Shown here: piece after piece, positions 3,484-35,293 of the stretch | Layout: each line of letters opens with the position of its first letter | Numbering within the stretch: the stretch's first letter is position 1 | IMG/VR virus record: IMGVR_UViG_2778261341_000005 | DNA: 35,293 nucleotides | Source: a virus | Lineage: Duplodnaviria > Heunggongvirae > Uroviricota > Caudoviricetes | Reading direction: 5' to 3' (one strand) | Notes under the pieces: model-generated | The model's input: only the letters and a program-made list of their open reading frames with translations | Told to the model about the DNA's origin: nothing | The model's database searches: none | Position numbers and translations under genes: made by a program

Positions 3484-5157
3484 CTATTCGATTATTGGTG
3501 AATATTTATTTTTAAGCTGGCGGCACTCCTGAGCGACCTGGCTGAACTGTGCGGCCTGCGGAGACGTGCCCGTTTTGGGGTGGGTATGTGATGCTGTAAT
3601 ATCTGCCAGCTCTTCCACCACATCGGCAAGGTCCGTCAGCATGGTCAGTACATTAATGCCCTCGTTTCCCAGCTTCACCGTATCGCCAACCAGCTTCTGC
3701 GCCAGCGCAATACTGTGACGGACGCCCTTAATCTTTTCGGTAAGGCTGCCGCCCACGGTGTCCTGGGTGTCGCCTTCCACGTCGCGCTCACAGGTACCGG
3801 CAACCACCATCATGTGCCCGCCCGTGCTGATGCTGTAGTTCTCTTCAGTGATATGGGTGACCGCGCCAGCCTGAAGCGTGGATACGCCCAGGACGGTGGT
3901 TGTGTCGGTTGCCTGTATGGTGGTCTCCCGGCTGGTCAGGCTCCGCTTTTCCTCGTCTGCACTCACCACGCGCTCGCGTGATGTCTCCTGTATCCGCTGG
4001 TCTGTCTGGCGCTCCCAGTCTCCGGCGACCGTCACGCGCTGCGATACGCCGTCGCGCTGTTGCTGCAACTGCTCGCCCGGCTTCACGTCGGGCAGATTGT
4101 GGCCCTCTGCCATTATCTGGCGGATGAAGGGCTTATCCGCCCGGCCTTCCACAAATCCCACTTCCACCAGGGTTCCGGGCGGCGGGAACTGGAACATGCC
4201 GGACTCACTGCCCGCCATGGGAACGGGGAGGGGAACGGCGTTATAAACGGGCGTATCCGCTGCCGGGTTGCCGTTCTCGTCAAGCAGCTGGAGATTCACC
4301 GCGTAGCGGGGTCTGAACGGGTCGGCAATATTGCCCGCGCTGACGGCTTCGGTCGGCGCCTCAACACGTGCCAGTTTGGGCAGGTGAAGCCCTGATGCCA
4401 GTTCAGGGAAGGCCTTTTCAGCCTGGCGACGGAAAGGGGACTTCTGGAGGGGGGCGCCGGTGGCTTTATTGCGTGGTGTCCACGTGATGGTCATGTTGTC
4501 ATCTTCCAGCATGACCATCGTCAGGCGCTGACCGTTCACCTCCACACCCGGTCGCAGCGTCGGAATCATCGGGAGGGTCATACTGTGCCCGCCCGTTGAT
4601 GCCTGGCTGAACTCGTGCGGGATGGTGACGGGGCGACCGGAAAACATCCCCTGCGCGGCAGCAGCGGCCATAATGCCGCCGTCCGGTAACGGATGCCAGA
4701 TGTAATCCGGTACGGAGAAAATACGCCCCAGACTGGCCAGCAGTTCGTAGCCCGTGCCGCTGTGTGTGAAATGCGGAACGGGTCTGTCAGTGTAAGCCGC
4801 GTTGTCCGGCAGGATGATTTCCAGCCCGCTGGCCTCACTCAGCCACTGTGTGACCGTGCGCATTGTCGGGTGCTGAAATGAACAGGGGAAGGGGTGATCA
4901 AGGATCCCCGCCATTTCACGAATCAGAAGCCGCACCGAGCCGTTTTCAGCGGGCTGGCTGCGTTCAACGTATCCGGTAAACCAGCGCACCAGGTCGTTTC
5001 CGTATCCGATATCGAGACGAACGGGGCGCCCGGTGTAGTTCTGCTCTGTTCTGGCCGTGATAAATCCGCGTCCGCACGCGTTCAGCTCAAGCATGACGGA
5101 ACAACTGACCAGCTGAATGGTGTCGTTACCCAGTAACAGACGTTTAGTGGGGTTCAT
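3484..5157 (-). CDS. baseplate hub / central spike protein (gpV-like OB-fold; possibly a gpD-gpV, VgrG-like fusion)
   Basis: 557 aa; mid-protein segment VPLPVPMAGSESGMFQFPPPGTLVEVGFVEGRADKPFI resembles the gp5/gpV/VgrG OB-fold motif; C-terminal SHTHP near the tip (His-x-His apex as in spike proteins); last gene of the tail operon. Confidence 0.5.
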   Translation of the reverse strand: MNPTKRLLLGNDTIQLVSCSVMLELNACGRGFITARTEQNYTGRPVRLDIGYGNDLVRWFTGYVERSQPAENGSVRLLIREMAGILDHPFPCSFQHPTMRTVTQWLSEASGLEIILPDNAAYTDRPVPHFTHSGTGYELLASLGRIFSVPDYIWHPLPDGGIMAAAAAQGMFSGRPVTIPHEFSQASTGGHSMTLPMIPTLRPGVEVNGQRLTMVMLEDDNMTITWTPRNKATGAPLQKSPFRRQAEKAFPELASGLHLPKLARVEAPTEAVSAGNIADPFRPRYAVNLQLLDENGNPAADTPVYNAVPLPVPMAGSESGMFQFPPPGTLVEVGFVEGRADKPFIRQIMAEGHNLPDVKPGEQLQQQRDGVSQRVTVAGDWERQTDQRIQETSRERVVSADEEKRSLTSRETTIQATDTTTVLGVSTLQAGAVTHITEENYSISTGGHMMVVAGTCERDVEGDTQDTVGGSLTEKIKGVRHSIALAQKLVGDTVKLGNEGINVLTMLTDLADVVEELADITASHTHPKTGTSPQAAQFSQVAQECRQLKNKYSPIIE

Positions 5158-28497: not shown

Positions 28498-28901
28498 TCC
28501 CCGGCAGTCGCCGCCTGAAACGCCGCGCGGTACAGCACGAGAAGGCGCTGGTATTCACCGATAAAGTCTTCTGCGGTGTATATGCCTTTCACGGCCACGC
28601 TGTGGTTTGTCATTTCCAGAACAAGCGTCATCTCTGACGACGACCAGCTGATGGCGGTGCTGTCGGTTCCGTTGATGTGAAATAAACCAAAACCATCACC
28701 ATCACCTTTCACGTCCACGCGGTAACGGTCGTCAACGGTGAAGGAGAAATCCCCGTATGTGGTGACGCGTCTGGCGGCCCGTTTACAGGCGCGGCGGTAA
28801 TAGTCGTGCCAGTCGTTCAGGCGGGAAGCCAGCCGGGGATCCACTGCCCACATCCAGTTAAAAAAATCCTGAATATCTGAAAGTCCCTTAACGCTCTTCA
28901 T
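28485..28901 (-). CDS. hypothetical early protein (138 aa)
   Basis: Overlaps the start of A by 13 nt; no motif. Confidence 0.45.
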   Translation of the reverse strand: MKSVKGLSDIQDFFNWMWAVDPRLASRLNDWHDYYRRACKRAARRVTTYGDFSFTVDDRYRVDVKGDGDGFGLFHINGTDSTAISWSSSEMTLVLEMTNHSVAVKGIYTAEDFIGEYQRLLVLYRAAFQAATAGECDA

Positions 28902-28969
28902 GAGAACCTCCGGTAACAGACGTGCGGAAGCCTCCCGCGCACGGGTGCGGGATGGCTTCAGGATGTTGT

Positions 28970-29197
28970 TTAGTGGTGGTGTTGCTGGTTGATGAGGCTT
29001 TGCAGTTCTGCCATATCTTCGGCGAGATAGCTGAAGACAGCAGCGCAGTAACGGTTTGATAGCGCGTGCGTGCGCTCATGCAGCATGTTGATATGCATGA
29101 TTTGCGCGACGCGTGATGCGCGCCAGAGTCTGCGGTTGATTTCAGTGCGGATGTGAAGACGCTCAGCGCGGGCGCGCTGTTGCCTGCGGTTTGCCAT
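28970..29197 (-). CDS. hypothetical early protein (75 aa, basic)
   Basis: Preferred over the overlapping 206-aa ORF 28888..29508, whose product is low-complexity S/T/R-rich. Confidence 0.4.
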   Translation of the reverse strand: MANRRQQRARAERLHIRTEINRRLWRASRVAQIMHINMLHERTHALSNRYCAAVFSYLAEDMAELQSLINQQHHH

Positions 29198-29376
29198 GGT
29201 GTTTGGCCTCTTGTAGTAAGTTCTGAAAACTCACCATCCAGAGCTGCGAAACAGTGGGTGGCGAGACGTACGAGGTTCGCAGTACCGGCTACAAGAGATC
29301 CCGGCCCGACCGAAGTCGGCCCCGTACGCCCCGCCATAATTCTGACGCGAAAAAGACGTGGCGATACAGTACGCAC

Positions 29377-29397
29377 AAAAAAACCGCTGGCGCGGTT
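29377..29397 (-). terminator. intrinsic terminator inside the early region (putative)
   Basis: Plus strand aaaaaaa + accgctggcgcggt: read on the minus strand a GC hairpin followed by T7. Confidence 0.4.
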
Positions 29398-29519
29398 GTG
29401 CGCTCTTGTAGTCGGCAGGCTGCGAAACCCGGCACCCGTTTTATGAGGTGCAGCGGGAATGTAACCTGACTGATTGCGGCATGGCAAGCGGTTTTTTTGT
29501 GTGTGCATGTTCTGGTTTC

Positions 29520-29819
29520 TTACTGGTTCAGAAAAAAATCAAAAACCTTGTCAATGCGTTGCAGTAGCTCTTGCTGTATTGCTTCCGGCGTTTCCGGTTC
29601 ACCTGGCGCCTCCAACGTCGCGCAGAAATCAGCGATTTCATGATGGAGCGCCAGGCGAATGGCAGGAGCCGTGGTTCTGGCGTGCTCCAGCTCATCCAGC
29701 AGTGCCAGCACAGCAGACGGCGAGAGCATTGCGCGAAATGCCAGTAATTTTTGAGGCGTTGCCATTCGTTGCAGGGCAAATGCCAGTTCGCGTAGCTTCT
29801 GGTGGTTGATGGTGCTCAT
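29520..29819 (-). CDS. hypothetical early protein (99 aa), paralogue of 30108..30359
   Basis: Shares ADFCATLEAPGEPETPEAIQQELLQRIDKVFDF with DDFTATLSGPGAPVTPGEIHRDLKRRIENAIDY of the neighbouring gene. Confidence 0.45.
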   Translation of the reverse strand: MSTINHQKLRELAFALQRMATPQKLLAFRAMLSPSAVLALLDELEHARTTAPAIRLALHHEIADFCATLEAPGEPETPEAIQQELLQRIDKVFDFFLNQ

Positions 29820-30082
29820 GCTCTGGCTTCCTTCAGTAGCTGGTTAAACATGTGAGTAAGTGGATTGCTACACCCGAACGGCATCGGGTTTACGTGGTAA
29901 GAAGCCCGGCCTCCTGTTTTGCGAGCGCGACCACCTGTGCTGCGGTTTGTTCTGATGACTAAGCCACCGCGCCAGAGTCGGCGTAACTCAGCATTAATGG
30001 CTGTGGTCTGGGTATTCAGTGCCGTGGCGATTTCACTTCCGCTGCACCCCGGATTGGCTGCGATGTAGTCCAGAATGGTCAT
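29816..30082 (-). CDS. small winged-helix-like DNA-binding protein (88 aa), putative
   Basis: LDYIAANPGCSGSEIATALN ... LRRLWRGGLV pattern typical of wHTH regulators. Confidence 0.4.
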   Translation of the reverse strand: MTILDYIAANPGCSGSEIATALNTQTTAINAELRRLWRGGLVIRTNRSTGGRARKTGGRASYHVNPMPFGCSNPLTHMFNQLLKEARA

Positions 30083-30107: not shown

Positions 30108-30359
30108 TTATTCAGTCGGGTTCAGGGTGTAATCAATGGCGTTTTCAATACGGCGTTTAAGGTCCCGGTGGATCTCACCTGGTGTTACTGGTGCGCCCGG
30201 ACCGCTCAGCGTTGCCGTGAAGTCGTCGATTTCCTCCAGTAACAGATTGCGGAGTACGGCGATGTGGTGGCGTGCGTCTTTACCGGGTTTACGTGCGTTG
30301 GTGGTGTACTTGCTGATCATGGCCGCAGCTCTCCGTGGGCTTGTGTTTCTGATTTCCAT
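30108..30359 (-). CDS. hypothetical early protein (83 aa), paralogue of 29520..29819
   Basis: See paralogue. Confidence 0.45.
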   Translation of the reverse strand: MEIRNTSPRRAAAMISKYTTNARKPGKDARHHIAVLRNLLLEEIDDFTATLSGPGAPVTPGEIHRDLKRRIENAIDYTLNPTE

Positions 30360-33782: not shown

Positions 33783-33883
33783 TTGTTATCCTCTCGCACA
33801 GGTGCGCCTATTGCACCTTATGAAGGTTTGTTTTGGTTTGTTTAATGTCGAAATTACGACACTTTTGCGAGGATTTTAGTGGT
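33783..33883. promoter_or_regulatory. immunity switch region between cox-like and C genes (putative early and repressor promoters/operators)
   Basis: Position between divergent Cox-like and C genes; contains GCAC-N2-GTGC and a further TTGCACC repeat. Confidence 0.4.
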
Positions 33884-34231
33884 ATGAATTCGACACTGTC
33901 AATAAGTATCGGTGAAAAAATCTTGATGATCCGGAAAAGTGAGAGGCTTACAAGGAAGCAATTCTTTGAGCTTACAGGGATTCCTGTTAATACGCAGAGG
34001 TATTACGAAACGGGAAGGCAAGATGGAATCGGAAGTGAGATCTTATTAAAGATCACAAAAAATTTACGTTTTAAAAAATATGCACTTTGGTTAACAACTG
34101 ATGAAACGTTTGAAGCTGGGGGTCAAATTGCCCCGGCTCTCTCTCTTGATGGATCTTCTCAGTCGGAGGGCGATCTGGCTTCAATCGACGTTACCCAAAA
34201 ATCATCCCGATCAGGCCGCAATGCTGGCTGA
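33884..34231 (+). CDS. immunity repressor (P2 C-type, HTH)
   Basis: From ATG 33884 (GAGGA Shine-Dalgarno): MNSTLSISIGEKILMIRKSERLTRKQFFELTGIPVNTQRYYETGRQ ... GGQIAPALSLDG closely parallels P2 C (EKIVLMRKSEYLSRQQLADLTGVP...YYESGR...SGQIAPALAHFG). Confidence 0.8.
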   Translation: MNSTLSISIGEKILMIRKSERLTRKQFFELTGIPVNTQRYYETGRQDGIGSEILLKITKNLRFKKYALWLTTDETFEAGGQIAPALSLDGSSQSEGDLASIDVTQKSSRSGRNAG

Positions 34232-34300
34232 CGTTACACATCGAGCGGGTTTCATCCCGCAGGGAGTGTTTGGTTAATTTATCCGTTGGAGGGGCTAATC

Positions 34301-35293
34301 ATGTCGATTAAGCAACTCAAAGACGGACGTTATAAGGTTGATGTAAGGCCACAAGGGACGGAAGGAAAGCGGATTCGTAAGATTTTTACCCTGAAGTCAA
34401 AGGCGCAGGAGTTTGAAAGGTATGTTTTGCAGAATTTTCATGATAAGCCATGGCAGGCTAAGCCAGCAGATCAGCGTCGGTTATCCGAACTGATAGAGGC
34501 CTGGTGGTTGCTTGATGGTCGTAACCAGGATTACGGGGATACCTACAGGGTCAGACTGGAAAAGATAAACCGTGAGATGGGTGATCCTCGTGCCAGTCAG
34601 ATGACGCGAAAATTTATGCTCGGGTACCGGTCCGACAAATTACAGGCCGGGTTAATGCCTTCCAGCATTAACCGCGATTTGTGTGCCTTGTCTGCAATGT
34701 TCAGCTCGCTGATTGAGGGTGAGGTGTTCCATAACGAAAACCCGGTTCGGGGAATACGTAAGCTGAAAGTCAGGAACACAGAGATGGCCTTTCTTTCAGA
34801 TGAGGAGATTGAACGACTGCTTGAACGACTCGATGGAGATGCGCGGCGTGTTGCCATTCTGTGTCTTTCCACGGGGGCAAGGTGGGGCGAAGCAGCTGGT
34901 TTACGTGGGGAACATATTGTAGGTAACCGCGTGATGTTCTTTAACACCAAGAACGGAAAATCTCGCGCCGTTCCCGTTTCTGATGCGGTACTTGCGTTAA
35001 TTAAAACCCGCAGAACCGGATTGTTGTACCAGGCTGATTACCTCAGATTTCGGGAGATCCTTCAGGAGGTGAAGCCGGACTTGCCGAAAGGGCAGGCCAC
35101 CCATGTCATGCGTCATACATTCGCTACACATTTCATGATGAATGGCGGAAATATCGTTACGCTACAACGAATCCTGGGCCATGCCACGATTCAACAAACG
35201 ATGACGTATGCGCATTTTTCGCCGGACTTTTTACAGGATGCAATCAGCTTTAATCCGCTGGCTGAAAGTGTCCATAAACTGTCCATCGATTAG
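34301..35293 (+). CDS. int: tyrosine integrase (P2 Int family)
   Basis: MSIKQLKDGRYKVDVRPQGTEGKRIRKIF ... ILCLSTGARWGEAAGL ... HVMRHTFATHFMMNGGNIVTLQRILGH ... YAHFSP matches P2 Int blocks including the catalytic R..H..R..Y region; stop is the last codon of the window. Confidence 0.93.
   Translation: MSIKQLKDGRYKVDVRPQGTEGKRIRKIFTLKSKAQEFERYVLQNFHDKPWQAKPADQRRLSELIEAWWLLDGRNQDYGDTYRVRLEKINREMGDPRASQMTRKFMLGYRSDKLQAGLMPSSINRDLCALSAMFSSLIEGEVFHNENPVRGIRKLKVRNTEMAFLSDEEIERLLERLDGDARRVAILCLSTGARWGEAAGLRGEHIVGNRVMFFNTKNGKSRAVPVSDAVLALIKTRRTGLLYQADYLRFREILQEVKPDLPKGQATHVMRHTFATHFMMNGGNIVTLQRILGHATIQQTMTYAHFSPDFLQDAISFNPLAESVHKLSID

Follow-up and report, generated by a model that had tools for sequence, protein, structure and literature searches.

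The segment at positions 29,198–29,519 of a virus record assigned to the Caudoviricetes (IMG/VR record IMGVR_UViG_2778261341_000005; the whole stretch of 35,293 nucleotides (nt) that was analysed is called here the window) very probably carries an antisense-RNA immunity module of the P4/P1 type, in which an IsrK-like small RNA is followed by a C4-type antisense RNA on the minus strand of an early operon, upstream of the replication gene A. An Rfam scan of the whole window returned exactly two matches above the curated thresholds, both located in this segment and, like the surrounding genes, on the minus strand. The C4-type RNA carries two recognition sequences, a′ and b′, complementary to a set of sites upstream (b1/a1), within IsrK, and to a second set downstream (b2/a2), in the leader of a 75-amino-acid (aa) gene related to P4 epsilon, and the sequences at the three places co-vary among relatives. 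This kind of system, its RNA families and its logic are already known (1990–2016); what is described here is an unannotated member in P2-like phages, and no description of the module in P88/Xuanwuvirus phages was found in the literature searched. The system involves no new principle and its overall interest is modest; the parts worth attention are a long-range helix across IsrK, possibly a new feature, and the link between helper-type phage and satellite.

The IsrK-like and C4-type RNAs and their recognition sites

The IsrK-like RNA (Table 1) is made up of a 5′ hairpin, a second hairpin with b1 in its loop, a single-stranded a1 and an intrinsic terminator, and is the element named a1b1 in the P1 literature. 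The candidate promoter in front of it is the sole promoter-like site within positions 28800–29900, its predicted –10 hexamer lies 6 nt from the first IsrK base, G29451, and it occupies the position of PLE in P4. Furthermore, a TTGnnn-17/18-TAnnnT motif ending 6–7 nt before the first IsrK hairpin is present in 72 of 76 diverse modules. The position matches that of the isrK promoter of Gifsy-1, which was shown experimentally (PMC4825925), and since the equivalent Gifsy-1 RNAs are highly expressed in all conditions tested (PMC7067206), the promoter predicted here is probably active in the lysogen. In P4, the equivalent of IsrK goes by the name of seqA (PMC3632133).

A spacer of 35 nt separates IsrK from the C4-type RNA, which consists of a closing stem of 17 base pairs (bp), an inner CCGAC-UUCG-GUCGG hairpin, a GCCGG/CCGGU hairpin with a′ in its loop and a junction that contains b′. 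Taken by itself, the C4 segment folds with a z-score of –4.2 relative to shuffles. When the Rfam C4 fold was examined on 16 diverse sequences (this window, P88-type phages, three lambdoid phages, P4 and metagenomic relatives), its 27 pairs were 100% paired, with 12 of them changed on both sides, as compared to 34–46% for slid controls.

Table 1. Coordinates in the window of the module, its recognition sites and the neighbouring genes
Feature	Position	Strand	Evidence and remarks
Predicted sigma-70-like IsrK promoter	29458–29487	minus	–35 TTGCCA 29487–29482, 18-nt spacer, –10 TACATT 29463–29458
IsrK-like small RNA	29377–29451	minus	Rfam RF01394 isrK, 65.5 bits (gathering threshold 50), E = 5e-12, model 1–77 of 77
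b1, GUUUCGCAGC	29419–29428	minus	Complement of C4 b′; core UUCGCAG 29426–29420; repeat D7
a1, CUACAAGAG	29403–29411	minus	Complement of C4 a′ loop
IsrK intrinsic terminator, AACCGC-GCCA-GCGGUU + U-run	29377–29397	minus	Terminator scan; fits terminator helix of isrK model
C4-type antisense RNA (CI RNA in P4)	29254–29341	minus	Rfam RF01695, 81.1 bits (gathering threshold 45), E = 1.4e-14, model 1–87 of 87
a′, CUCUUGUAG	29289–29297	minus	In 12-nt loop of C4 GCCGG/CCGGU hairpin
b′, CUGCGAA	29276–29282	minus	Single-stranded junction of C4
b2, GUUUCGCAGC	29243–29252	minus	Downstream target of b′
a2, CUACAAGAG (29216–29208), with Shine-Dalgarno	29207–29216	minus	Downstream target of a′
Upstream arm of the long-range helix, ACACACAAAAAAACCGCUUGC, 21 nt	29484–29504	minus	Partner 29391–29371
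Epsilon-like 75-aa gene	28970–29197	minus	Pfam PF25738 Derepression (P4 epsilon) family
138-aa open reading frame	28901–28485	minus	phrog_3237, function unknown
Replication gene A	28497–25969	minus	Pfam Phage_GPA, E = 1.4e-106
Integrase	34286–35293		
C-type repressor	33833–34231		41% identical to P2 C

The complementarity between C4 and its sites is exact, over 9 nt for the a′ sites and 7 nt for the b′ sites, in the manner of RF01695 targets, and on the minus-strand RNA of the whole window the target of a′ occurs at a1 and a2 only. Downstream of C4, a conserved spacer hairpin stands between b2 and a2, and a2 overlaps the Shine-Dalgarno sequence AAGAGG (29212–29207), whose end lies 9 nt from the ATG at 29197. 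The duplex energies calculated for the isolated segments are –13.6 kcal/mol for a′–a2, –12.8 for a′–a1, –10.5 for b′–b2 and –12.0 for b′–b1.

An earlier, sequence-only reading had seen here nested inverted repeats with an internal terminator, and all the sequence features that it listed proved to exist, with coordinates shifted by at most one base. The 9-mer CTCTTGTAG is found on the plus strand at 29208–29216 and 29403–29411 and its reverse complement at 29289–29297; these three copies are the only ones in the window, against 0.06 expected, and the number three was reached in 0 of 100 shuffles. Likewise, GCTGCGAAAC occurs at 29243–29252 and 29419–29428 (direct repeat D7), and its 7-nt core CTGCGAA has a complement at 29276–29282. 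By itself CTGCGAA is not rare (five in the window, six expected), and it is meaningful because its position is fixed beside the 9-mer. The ccgac-cgaa-gtcgg hairpin was found again at 29306–29319, and the minus-strand terminator (AACCGC-GCCA-GCGGTT followed by a T-run, 29397–29377) was recovered by a terminator scan. RNA structure prediction, which the same reading had suggested as a check, gave z = –4.7 for the minus-strand RNA from 29451 to 29180, with none of 200 shuffles equalling it. What was not borne out is the interpretation of the complementary blocks as one long nested hairpin. These blocks are a′ and b′ of C4 together with its two sets of targets, and the symmetric order b1 a1, a′ b′, b2 a2 is the reason why the DNA reads as nested inverted repeats plus a second direct copy.

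Relatives of the module were collected with the protein of the gene that follows it, which matched 80 IMG/VR loci with 56 distinct upstream regions (a scan of genome contigs with the 75-aa protein gave one locus only, L089 from Salmonella, the IMG/VR scans being more diverse), and pairs were counted on 63 aligned sequences, among them members of a second, more distant clade. The positions of the repeats are kept in every relative examined. In the 56 upstream regions the scaffold is almost invariant and a′, b′, a1, b1, a2 and b2 are hypervariable with compensating changes, for a total of 14 a′ loops, 6 b′ and 19 a′/b′ combinations. The Watson-Crick run between a loop and its own target has a median of 9 nt for a′ and 7 nt for b′, as compared to 4 and 3 nt when the loop is set against other alleles. 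On the alignment, 94.2% of the cells are paired for a′–a2 and 98.8% for a′–a1, with 7 of 9 pairs changed on both sides in either case; the corresponding values for b′–b2 and b′–b1 are 98.0% and 99.5%, with 6 of 7 pairs changed on both sides, and the slid controls reach 30–54%. This pattern is the signature of multi-specificity antisense recognition, as known for P1 versus P7. Moreover, all 7 related and lambdoid phages that were tested carry the isrK and C4 pair, as does P4, where it lies upstream of epsilon.

Some loci depart from this regularity. In L017 (115–480), the a1/b1 sites of IsrK have a specificity other than that of the C4 encoded with them, and a2/b2 fit this C4; in L016 and L026, a2 fits a′ only partly, and in L021 b1 is partly deleted. 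These mismatched natural recombinants could serve as natural tests of the role of IsrK.

The sequence-only reading had offered three functions, namely a small RNA, an attenuator separating early sub-operons and a cis-acting replication element. The first was right, in that the two Rfam families exceed their curated thresholds on the minus strand. The second was close in spirit: an intrinsic terminator is indeed present in the middle of the operon, and the modules of P4 and P1 block the expression of downstream genes. In its strict form, that is, a same-transcript attenuator with alternative hairpins, including the terminator, and without any trans-acting small RNA, it is nevertheless improbable. 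A terminator and a competing upstream arm are present, the minimum-energy fold of the read-through RNA pairs a1/b1 with a′/b′ within the molecule, and an inactive same-molecule "structure A" was shown in Gifsy-1 (PMC4825925). However, short RNAs accumulate and act in trans in all the characterised relatives (PMC4825925; PMC3632133; Citron & Schuster 1990 cited in PMC12197685), C4 has a nearly invariant scaffold that folds by itself and leaves a′ and b′ exposed, and a position-conserved promoter motif precedes IsrK. A single static hairpin is disfavoured by the co-variation of three separate sites across the 63 sequences, which is a signature of RNA–RNA recognition. Pairing within the same transcript is geometrically possible, is predicted by folding for the long read-through transcript, and is a possible part of the system.

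The third function, a cis-acting DNA element such as an origin of replication or an inverted repeat bound by a protein, is so improbable that it can almost be set aside. It would account for the several direct and inverted repeats, among them a 21-bp inverted repeat around the IsrK promoter and body that is readable at the DNA level, and for the vicinity of a replication gene. On the other hand, both Rfam matches are strand-specific and structure-aware, conservation follows RNA helices and antisense sites, and the compensating changes keep RNA pairing, G·U pairs included. Furthermore, the replication genes next to the module are unrelated to one another, being P4 alpha in the satellite, primosomal genes in lambdoid genomes and A in P2-like ones, and neither iterons nor an AT-rich unwinding element were seen in the stretch. 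In P2 and 186, the origin lies inside gene A.

Translation of the region deserves a separate consideration, since a 206-aa open reading frame (ORF) runs along the minus strand from 29508 to 28888. That this ORF is the real feature is very improbable, despite several points in its favour. From an AUG at the 5′ end of C4 (29337), most relatives have about 148 codons without a stop in this frame, and one of them is a phage with an epsilon-like protein of only 62% identity; there is a weak match to the Pfam family PF10554 Phage_ASH (22.3 bits); and in Gifsy-1 the 45 codons of orf45, downstream of isrK and starting from nt 107 of the transcript, were shown to be translated (PMC4825925), in coupling with the next gene. 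The orf45 may be equivalent to the ORF that begins at the 5′ AUG of C4. Against a coding function, the PF10554 score is below the cut-off of 26 and the match (29211–29463, minus strand) spans exactly the RNA module, the variable patches change as compensating RNA pairs at three sites, and the frame is broken in L064, L075, L030 and L062. In addition, the frame shows no conservation as a protein: where it overlaps the 75-aa gene, its identity (0.45–0.64) is no better than that of a stop-containing frame (0.47–0.64), as compared to 0.62–0.83 for the epsilon frame; about 5% of synonymous recodings produce an open alternative frame; and the RefSeq records of Escherichia coli, among the matches listed, are without annotation here. 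The frame 28888–29337 (minus strand) spans the whole epsilon-like gene in another frame and stops 11–13 nt past the start of the 138-aa ORF; it may be a by-product.

The same Pfam family gives 59.7–82.9 bits on the conceptual translation of the seqA–CI RNA–seqC region of P4 (L088 8168–8710, minus strand) and 39.4 bits on an ORF of the L104 module (4437–5045). PF10554 thus matches the translated RNA region of P4, whereas the true epsilon of that phage falls in a different family, PF25738 (170 bits); what is called the Ash family therefore appears to be the shadow, in protein space, of the IsrK–C4 RNA module. PF10554 was used as the "epsilon" marker in a survey of P4-like satellites (PMC8628076).

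Target gene, operon context and proposed mechanism

The 75-aa protein encoded next to the module reaches 29.6 bits against PF25738 (cut-off 27) and shares 34% identity over 50 aa with P4 epsilon, with a pairwise E-value of 2e-8. The gene behaves as a coding sequence, with substitutions distributed as 38:37:71 over the three codon positions, that is, with a third-position enrichment, and with its frame better conserved than the other two. P4 epsilon is an anti-repressor that binds the C protein of P2 (PMC2995052) and, by analogy, the 75-aa protein is presumed to be the anti-repressor of the P2 C-type repressor of this phage. A search of NCBIfam with the 75-aa, 138-aa and 99-aa proteins matched nothing, and the downstream proteins match only the Pfam Derepression family and PHROGs of unknown function, so that the icd, ant order of P1 and P7 is not found here.

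The window is a complete P2-like prophage. Its closest phage records are those of Xuanwuvirus (P88 group, Peduoviridae), with 85–93% identity over the full region, and P88 itself is 87% identical over 77% of it. A Cox-like gene heads the long minus-strand early operon driven by Pe, and the module sits mid-way in it, after at least 10 ORFs, the last of which encodes 99 aa and has its stop codon at 29522–29520 (minus strand). This ORF adjoining the module (29520–29819) and a second one at 30108–30359, both on the minus strand, flank a MarR-like gene and are paralogues, both assigned to phrog_4144 (E = 1e-61 and 1e-10); the former also has a weak Ead/Ea22-like match.

From these elements, the following mechanism can be proposed. 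Transcription would start at about 29451 from the promoter at 29487–29458, and most transcripts would end at the intrinsic terminator (29397–29377), giving an IsrK-like RNA of ~75 nt that displays b1 and a1. The RNA that reads through would carry C4 (29341–29254), presumably excised as in P1 and P4, and its a′ and b′ would pair with a2 (29216–29208) and b2 (29252–29243) in the leader of the next gene. Since the Shine-Dalgarno sequence lies partly within a2, this pairing would block the translation of the epsilon-like anti-repressor. By analogy with P1 and P4, the untranslated RNA would then likely be terminated early, so that the 138-aa ORF and gene A would also remain silent through polarity. 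The a1/b1 sites of IsrK may act as decoys or partner sites that compete for C4 and set the threshold of the block; in Gifsy-1, extra IsrK switches the downstream anti-repressor on (PMC4825925). Finally, the variable a′/b′ sequences would decide which phages share immunity at the RNA level.

A variant of this mechanism, quite possible but somewhat less likely than not, places the emphasis on the replication gene: C4 would prematurely terminate the transcripts that enter the block formed by the epsilon-like gene, the 138-aa ORF and A, and this P4-style RNA immunity would come on top of the C repressor as an independent second layer, the 75-aa gene being only the first blocked cistron. The order of the isrK–C4–target module, epsilon and replication gene is as in P4, and in the L104/L210 clade the epsilon-like gene directly precedes gene A. 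In addition, P4 CI RNA is said to terminate transcription at sites that include seqA and seqC (PMC4825925 discussion; PMC3632133), and the 14 × 6 a′/b′ alleles in 19 combinations fit a diversifying selection on specificity. P2-type phages, however, already possess immunity through the C repressor, and by sequence alone this variant is inseparable from the control of an anti-repressor.

Several observations weigh against the IsrK–C4 module as a whole, without displacing it. The Rfam model RF03163 (c4-a1b1) is below threshold at IsrK (20.7 versus 46.7 bits); the element was filed under isrK because the c4-a1b1 model overlaps isrK and P4 itself reaches only 44.1 bits. When C4 was co-folded with the leader by RNAcofold, which cannot represent loop–loop contacts, no energy was gained, and with IsrK the gain was –3.8 kcal/mol; this limit is the reason why segment duplex energies and co-variation were used instead. 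The epsilon-family assignment is marginal, standing close to its cut-off and with no match in NCBIfam. The function in this phage group is drawn wholly from analogy, and the characterised systems differ in their outputs: P1 combines a translation block with Rho-dependent polarity, P4 relies on premature termination, and in Gifsy-1 IsrK activates. The direction in which IsrK acts here, and its role, are therefore uncertain. Lastly, an intrinsic terminator precedes an essential replication gene, which calls for a hypothesised bypass.

Control of the module by the SOS response was also considered and rejected: the LexA box CTGT-N8-ACAG has no perfect match in the whole window (15 sites at one mismatch, ~9.8 expected), and CTGTATCGCCACGT, between IsrK and C4, is not a LexA box. 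Phage P88 was obtained by mitomycin C induction (PMC5285337), which contrasts with a prophage lacking a perfect LexA box, and no tum-like gene was noticed.

A long-range helix across IsrK

The promoter and body of IsrK are bracketed by an inverted repeat (I1), 90% complementary, whose arms could pair in RNA that comes from upstream. The upstream arm, ACACACAAAAAAACCGCUUGC, lies 15 nt past the stop of the preceding ORF and shares its final 4 nt with the –35 hexamer; its partner covers the loop, the 3′ arm, the U-run and the flank of the IsrK terminator. In every P88-type relative the conserved block is bounded on its 5′ side by this arm, even though the gene found upstream is of at least five different kinds.

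The two arms change together. The locus L064 has matched 1-nt deletions, one A from the A-run and one T from the T-run, and the helix of L042 and L070 is perfectly paired owing to a change in the loop. In the second P2-like clade (L104, L210–L218), the distal six bases of both arms are changed, from ACACAC/GUGCGU to CACGUA/UACGUG (in L104, the arms lie at 4441–4461 and 4552–4574). On the alignment, 90% of the cells of the helix are paired and two pairs are changed on both sides. The pairing energy (ΔG) ranges from –27 to –32 kcal/mol, with z-scores from –3.3 to –5.9, and in a set of 78 modules the helix is confined to the P2-like ones, being absent from the P4-like and lambdoid modules. An A-tract acting only as a promoter UP element was rejected, since it fails to explain the matched changes 50–58 nt upstream in the L104 clade.

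As regards its effect, equilibrium folding of four P2-like sequences gave a terminator probability of 0.46–0.93 for transcripts that start at the 5′ end of IsrK, and of 0.00–0.27 at the stem end, or at most 0.04 with the U-run included, for transcripts that come from upstream. The controls were mixed, as the lambdoid terminator was lost with at least 110 nt of upstream RNA and that of P4 was lost at one of three lengths; therefore, equilibrium folding alone is weak evidence for a terminator switch. The co-variation of the arms is stronger evidence for the helix than the folding is.

It is tentatively suggested that the helix fits the module into the middle of the early operon by making termination dependent on the promoter of origin; taken together with the a′/b′ alleles, shuffled into at least 19 combinations, this would amount to an RNA-level immunity layer in helper-type phages. 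RNA begun at the module's own promoter is without the upstream arm and would stop, yielding the short IsrK, and RNA begun at Pe carries it and would pass the terminator, reaching the epsilon-like gene and gene A. Alternatively, IsrK could be released by RNase III acting on the 21-bp duplex. If the suggestion holds true, the cassette of RNA plus epsilon known from P4 would be common to the phage family that P4 parasitises.

A further arrangement was noticed in P88 (L003 5420–5470, minus strand) and L109, where a moron (a lipoprotein/serine protease gene) lies just upstream, followed by the hairpin CCGGCCAG-UGAAAACCG-CUGGCCGG. This hairpin contains AAAACCGCUGGC, a 12-nt perfect complement of the 3′ half of the IsrK terminator, and is either a second potential pairing partner or a trace of the insertion of the moron.

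Annotation, distribution and comparison with known systems

The stretch is present in 1,282 of 5,426 complete E. coli genomes, and in the RefSeq records among the matches listed no feature is annotated there. In phage records the module has received different labels: a 206-aa "transcriptional regulator" in NC_049391 (L001 4792–5409), "similar to ash family protein", with an "ash family" pseudogene label, in PV468777 (L002 5149–5409), and a plus-strand hypothetical protein in P88 (L003 5159–5347). In phage 1720a-02 (L005 1930–2793), a "putative antirepressor" coding sequence is over-extended upstream across isrK and C4. The labels IsrK and C4 would correct this mis-annotation. Beyond that, in P2-like prophages of the P88 type an antisense RNA of many specificities would govern an epsilon-like anti-repressor and probably also the replication gene, which bears on the induction of these very common prophages and on mutual exclusion among them.

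Among the lambdoid-type loci, L123 (9289–11266, minus strand), and also L106, L107 and L166, contain two or three tandem units ~656 nt apart, each with its own promoter, IsrK, C4, target site, gene of ~120 aa and distinct a′/b′ specificity. In the locus of an Stx2a phage (L007 547–663), an ALIL pseudoknot (RF01497, 120.9 bits), a frameshift element of the IS3 family, lies ~2 kb from C4.

The closest known system is that of P4, in which isrK (8692 to 8615, 60.8 bits) and C4 (8507 to 8420, 74.9 bits, in a region historically annotated as "cI gene product") follow each other in the same order and strand as here. The P4 order is PLE – seqA – CI RNA/seqB – seqC – kil/eta – epsilon – orf151 – alpha. 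In both cases a promoter, in the present module a predicted one, with CTTGCC at the –35, directly precedes the IsrK-like hairpin, two-part a/b sites are found upstream and downstream, and an epsilon-family gene is followed by a replication gene; in P4, a2 overlaps the AGGAGG of the first downstream ORF. IsrK and C4 have been described as structural homologues of P4 seqA and CI RNA, under the name of "IsrK-C4 immunity system", with similar systems in P1, P7, N15 and lambdoid prophages (Barquist 2013, PMC3632133). On the other hand, the P4 module opens an operon in a satellite, whereas here it is mid-operon in a 35-kb helper-type prophage. In P4, kil/eta intervene and epsilon starts 245 nt past C4, whereas here a2 lies on the ribosome-binding site of the epsilon-like gene itself, 57 nt past C4. 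Moreover, the replication protein is P2 GPA here and the alpha primase in P4, the 138-aa ORF has no similarity to P4 orf151, and P4 is without the long-range helix across IsrK. The immunity RNA and the epsilon gene of P4 have close structural counterparts within the helper-type phage family; a published survey reported "very little homology" between P4-like elements and phages (PMC8628076).

The immI region of P1 and P7 has the order a1 b1 – c4 – a2 b2 – icd – ant1/2, and its c4 system was reportedly described by Citron and Schuster in 1990. In P1 and P7, c4 is excised from its precursor by RNase P. As in the mechanism proposed here, the antisense RNA is cut from the target's own transcript and its a′/b′ pair with a2/b2 over the ribosome-binding site of a gene that leads to an anti-repressor; an upstream a1/b1 copy exists, differences in a′/b′ give heteroimmunity, and the RF01695 family is common to both. 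Unlike immI, the module found here has no Icd or Ant homologue, its target being a 75-aa protein of the epsilon family, its a1/b1 are within a separately terminated small RNA, and it belongs to an integrating P2-like phage, P1 and P7 being plasmid prophages.

For Gifsy-1 of Salmonella, it has been shown that isrK has a promoter and a leaky terminator, that the downstream RNA complementary to IsrK (STnc1160) is processed, and that the anti-repressor is not translated until extra IsrK is provided (Hershko-Shalev 2016, PMC4825925). The order isrK – orf45/STnc1160 – anrP resembles the one found here, where IsrK, with predicted promoter and terminator, is followed by a complementary RNA and then by a presumed anti-repressor gene, and the lambdoid phages that were retrieved share the Gifsy-1 layout. 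The differences are that the AnrP-type target is reached via translational coupling through orf45, whereas here the ribosome-binding site would be covered directly, that the published model of Gifsy-1 does not invoke a C4-type repression, and that the lambdoid versions are without the co-varying long-range helix.

Lastly, Tum of phage 186 offers a functional parallel, being a small anti-repressor that lets a prophage of the P2 family leave lysogeny, as is presumed for the 75-aa protein; however, Tum targets the CI-type repressor of 186 and is controlled by LexA, whereas in the P88-type prophage the presumed target is a P2 C-type repressor and the control would be exerted by RNA.

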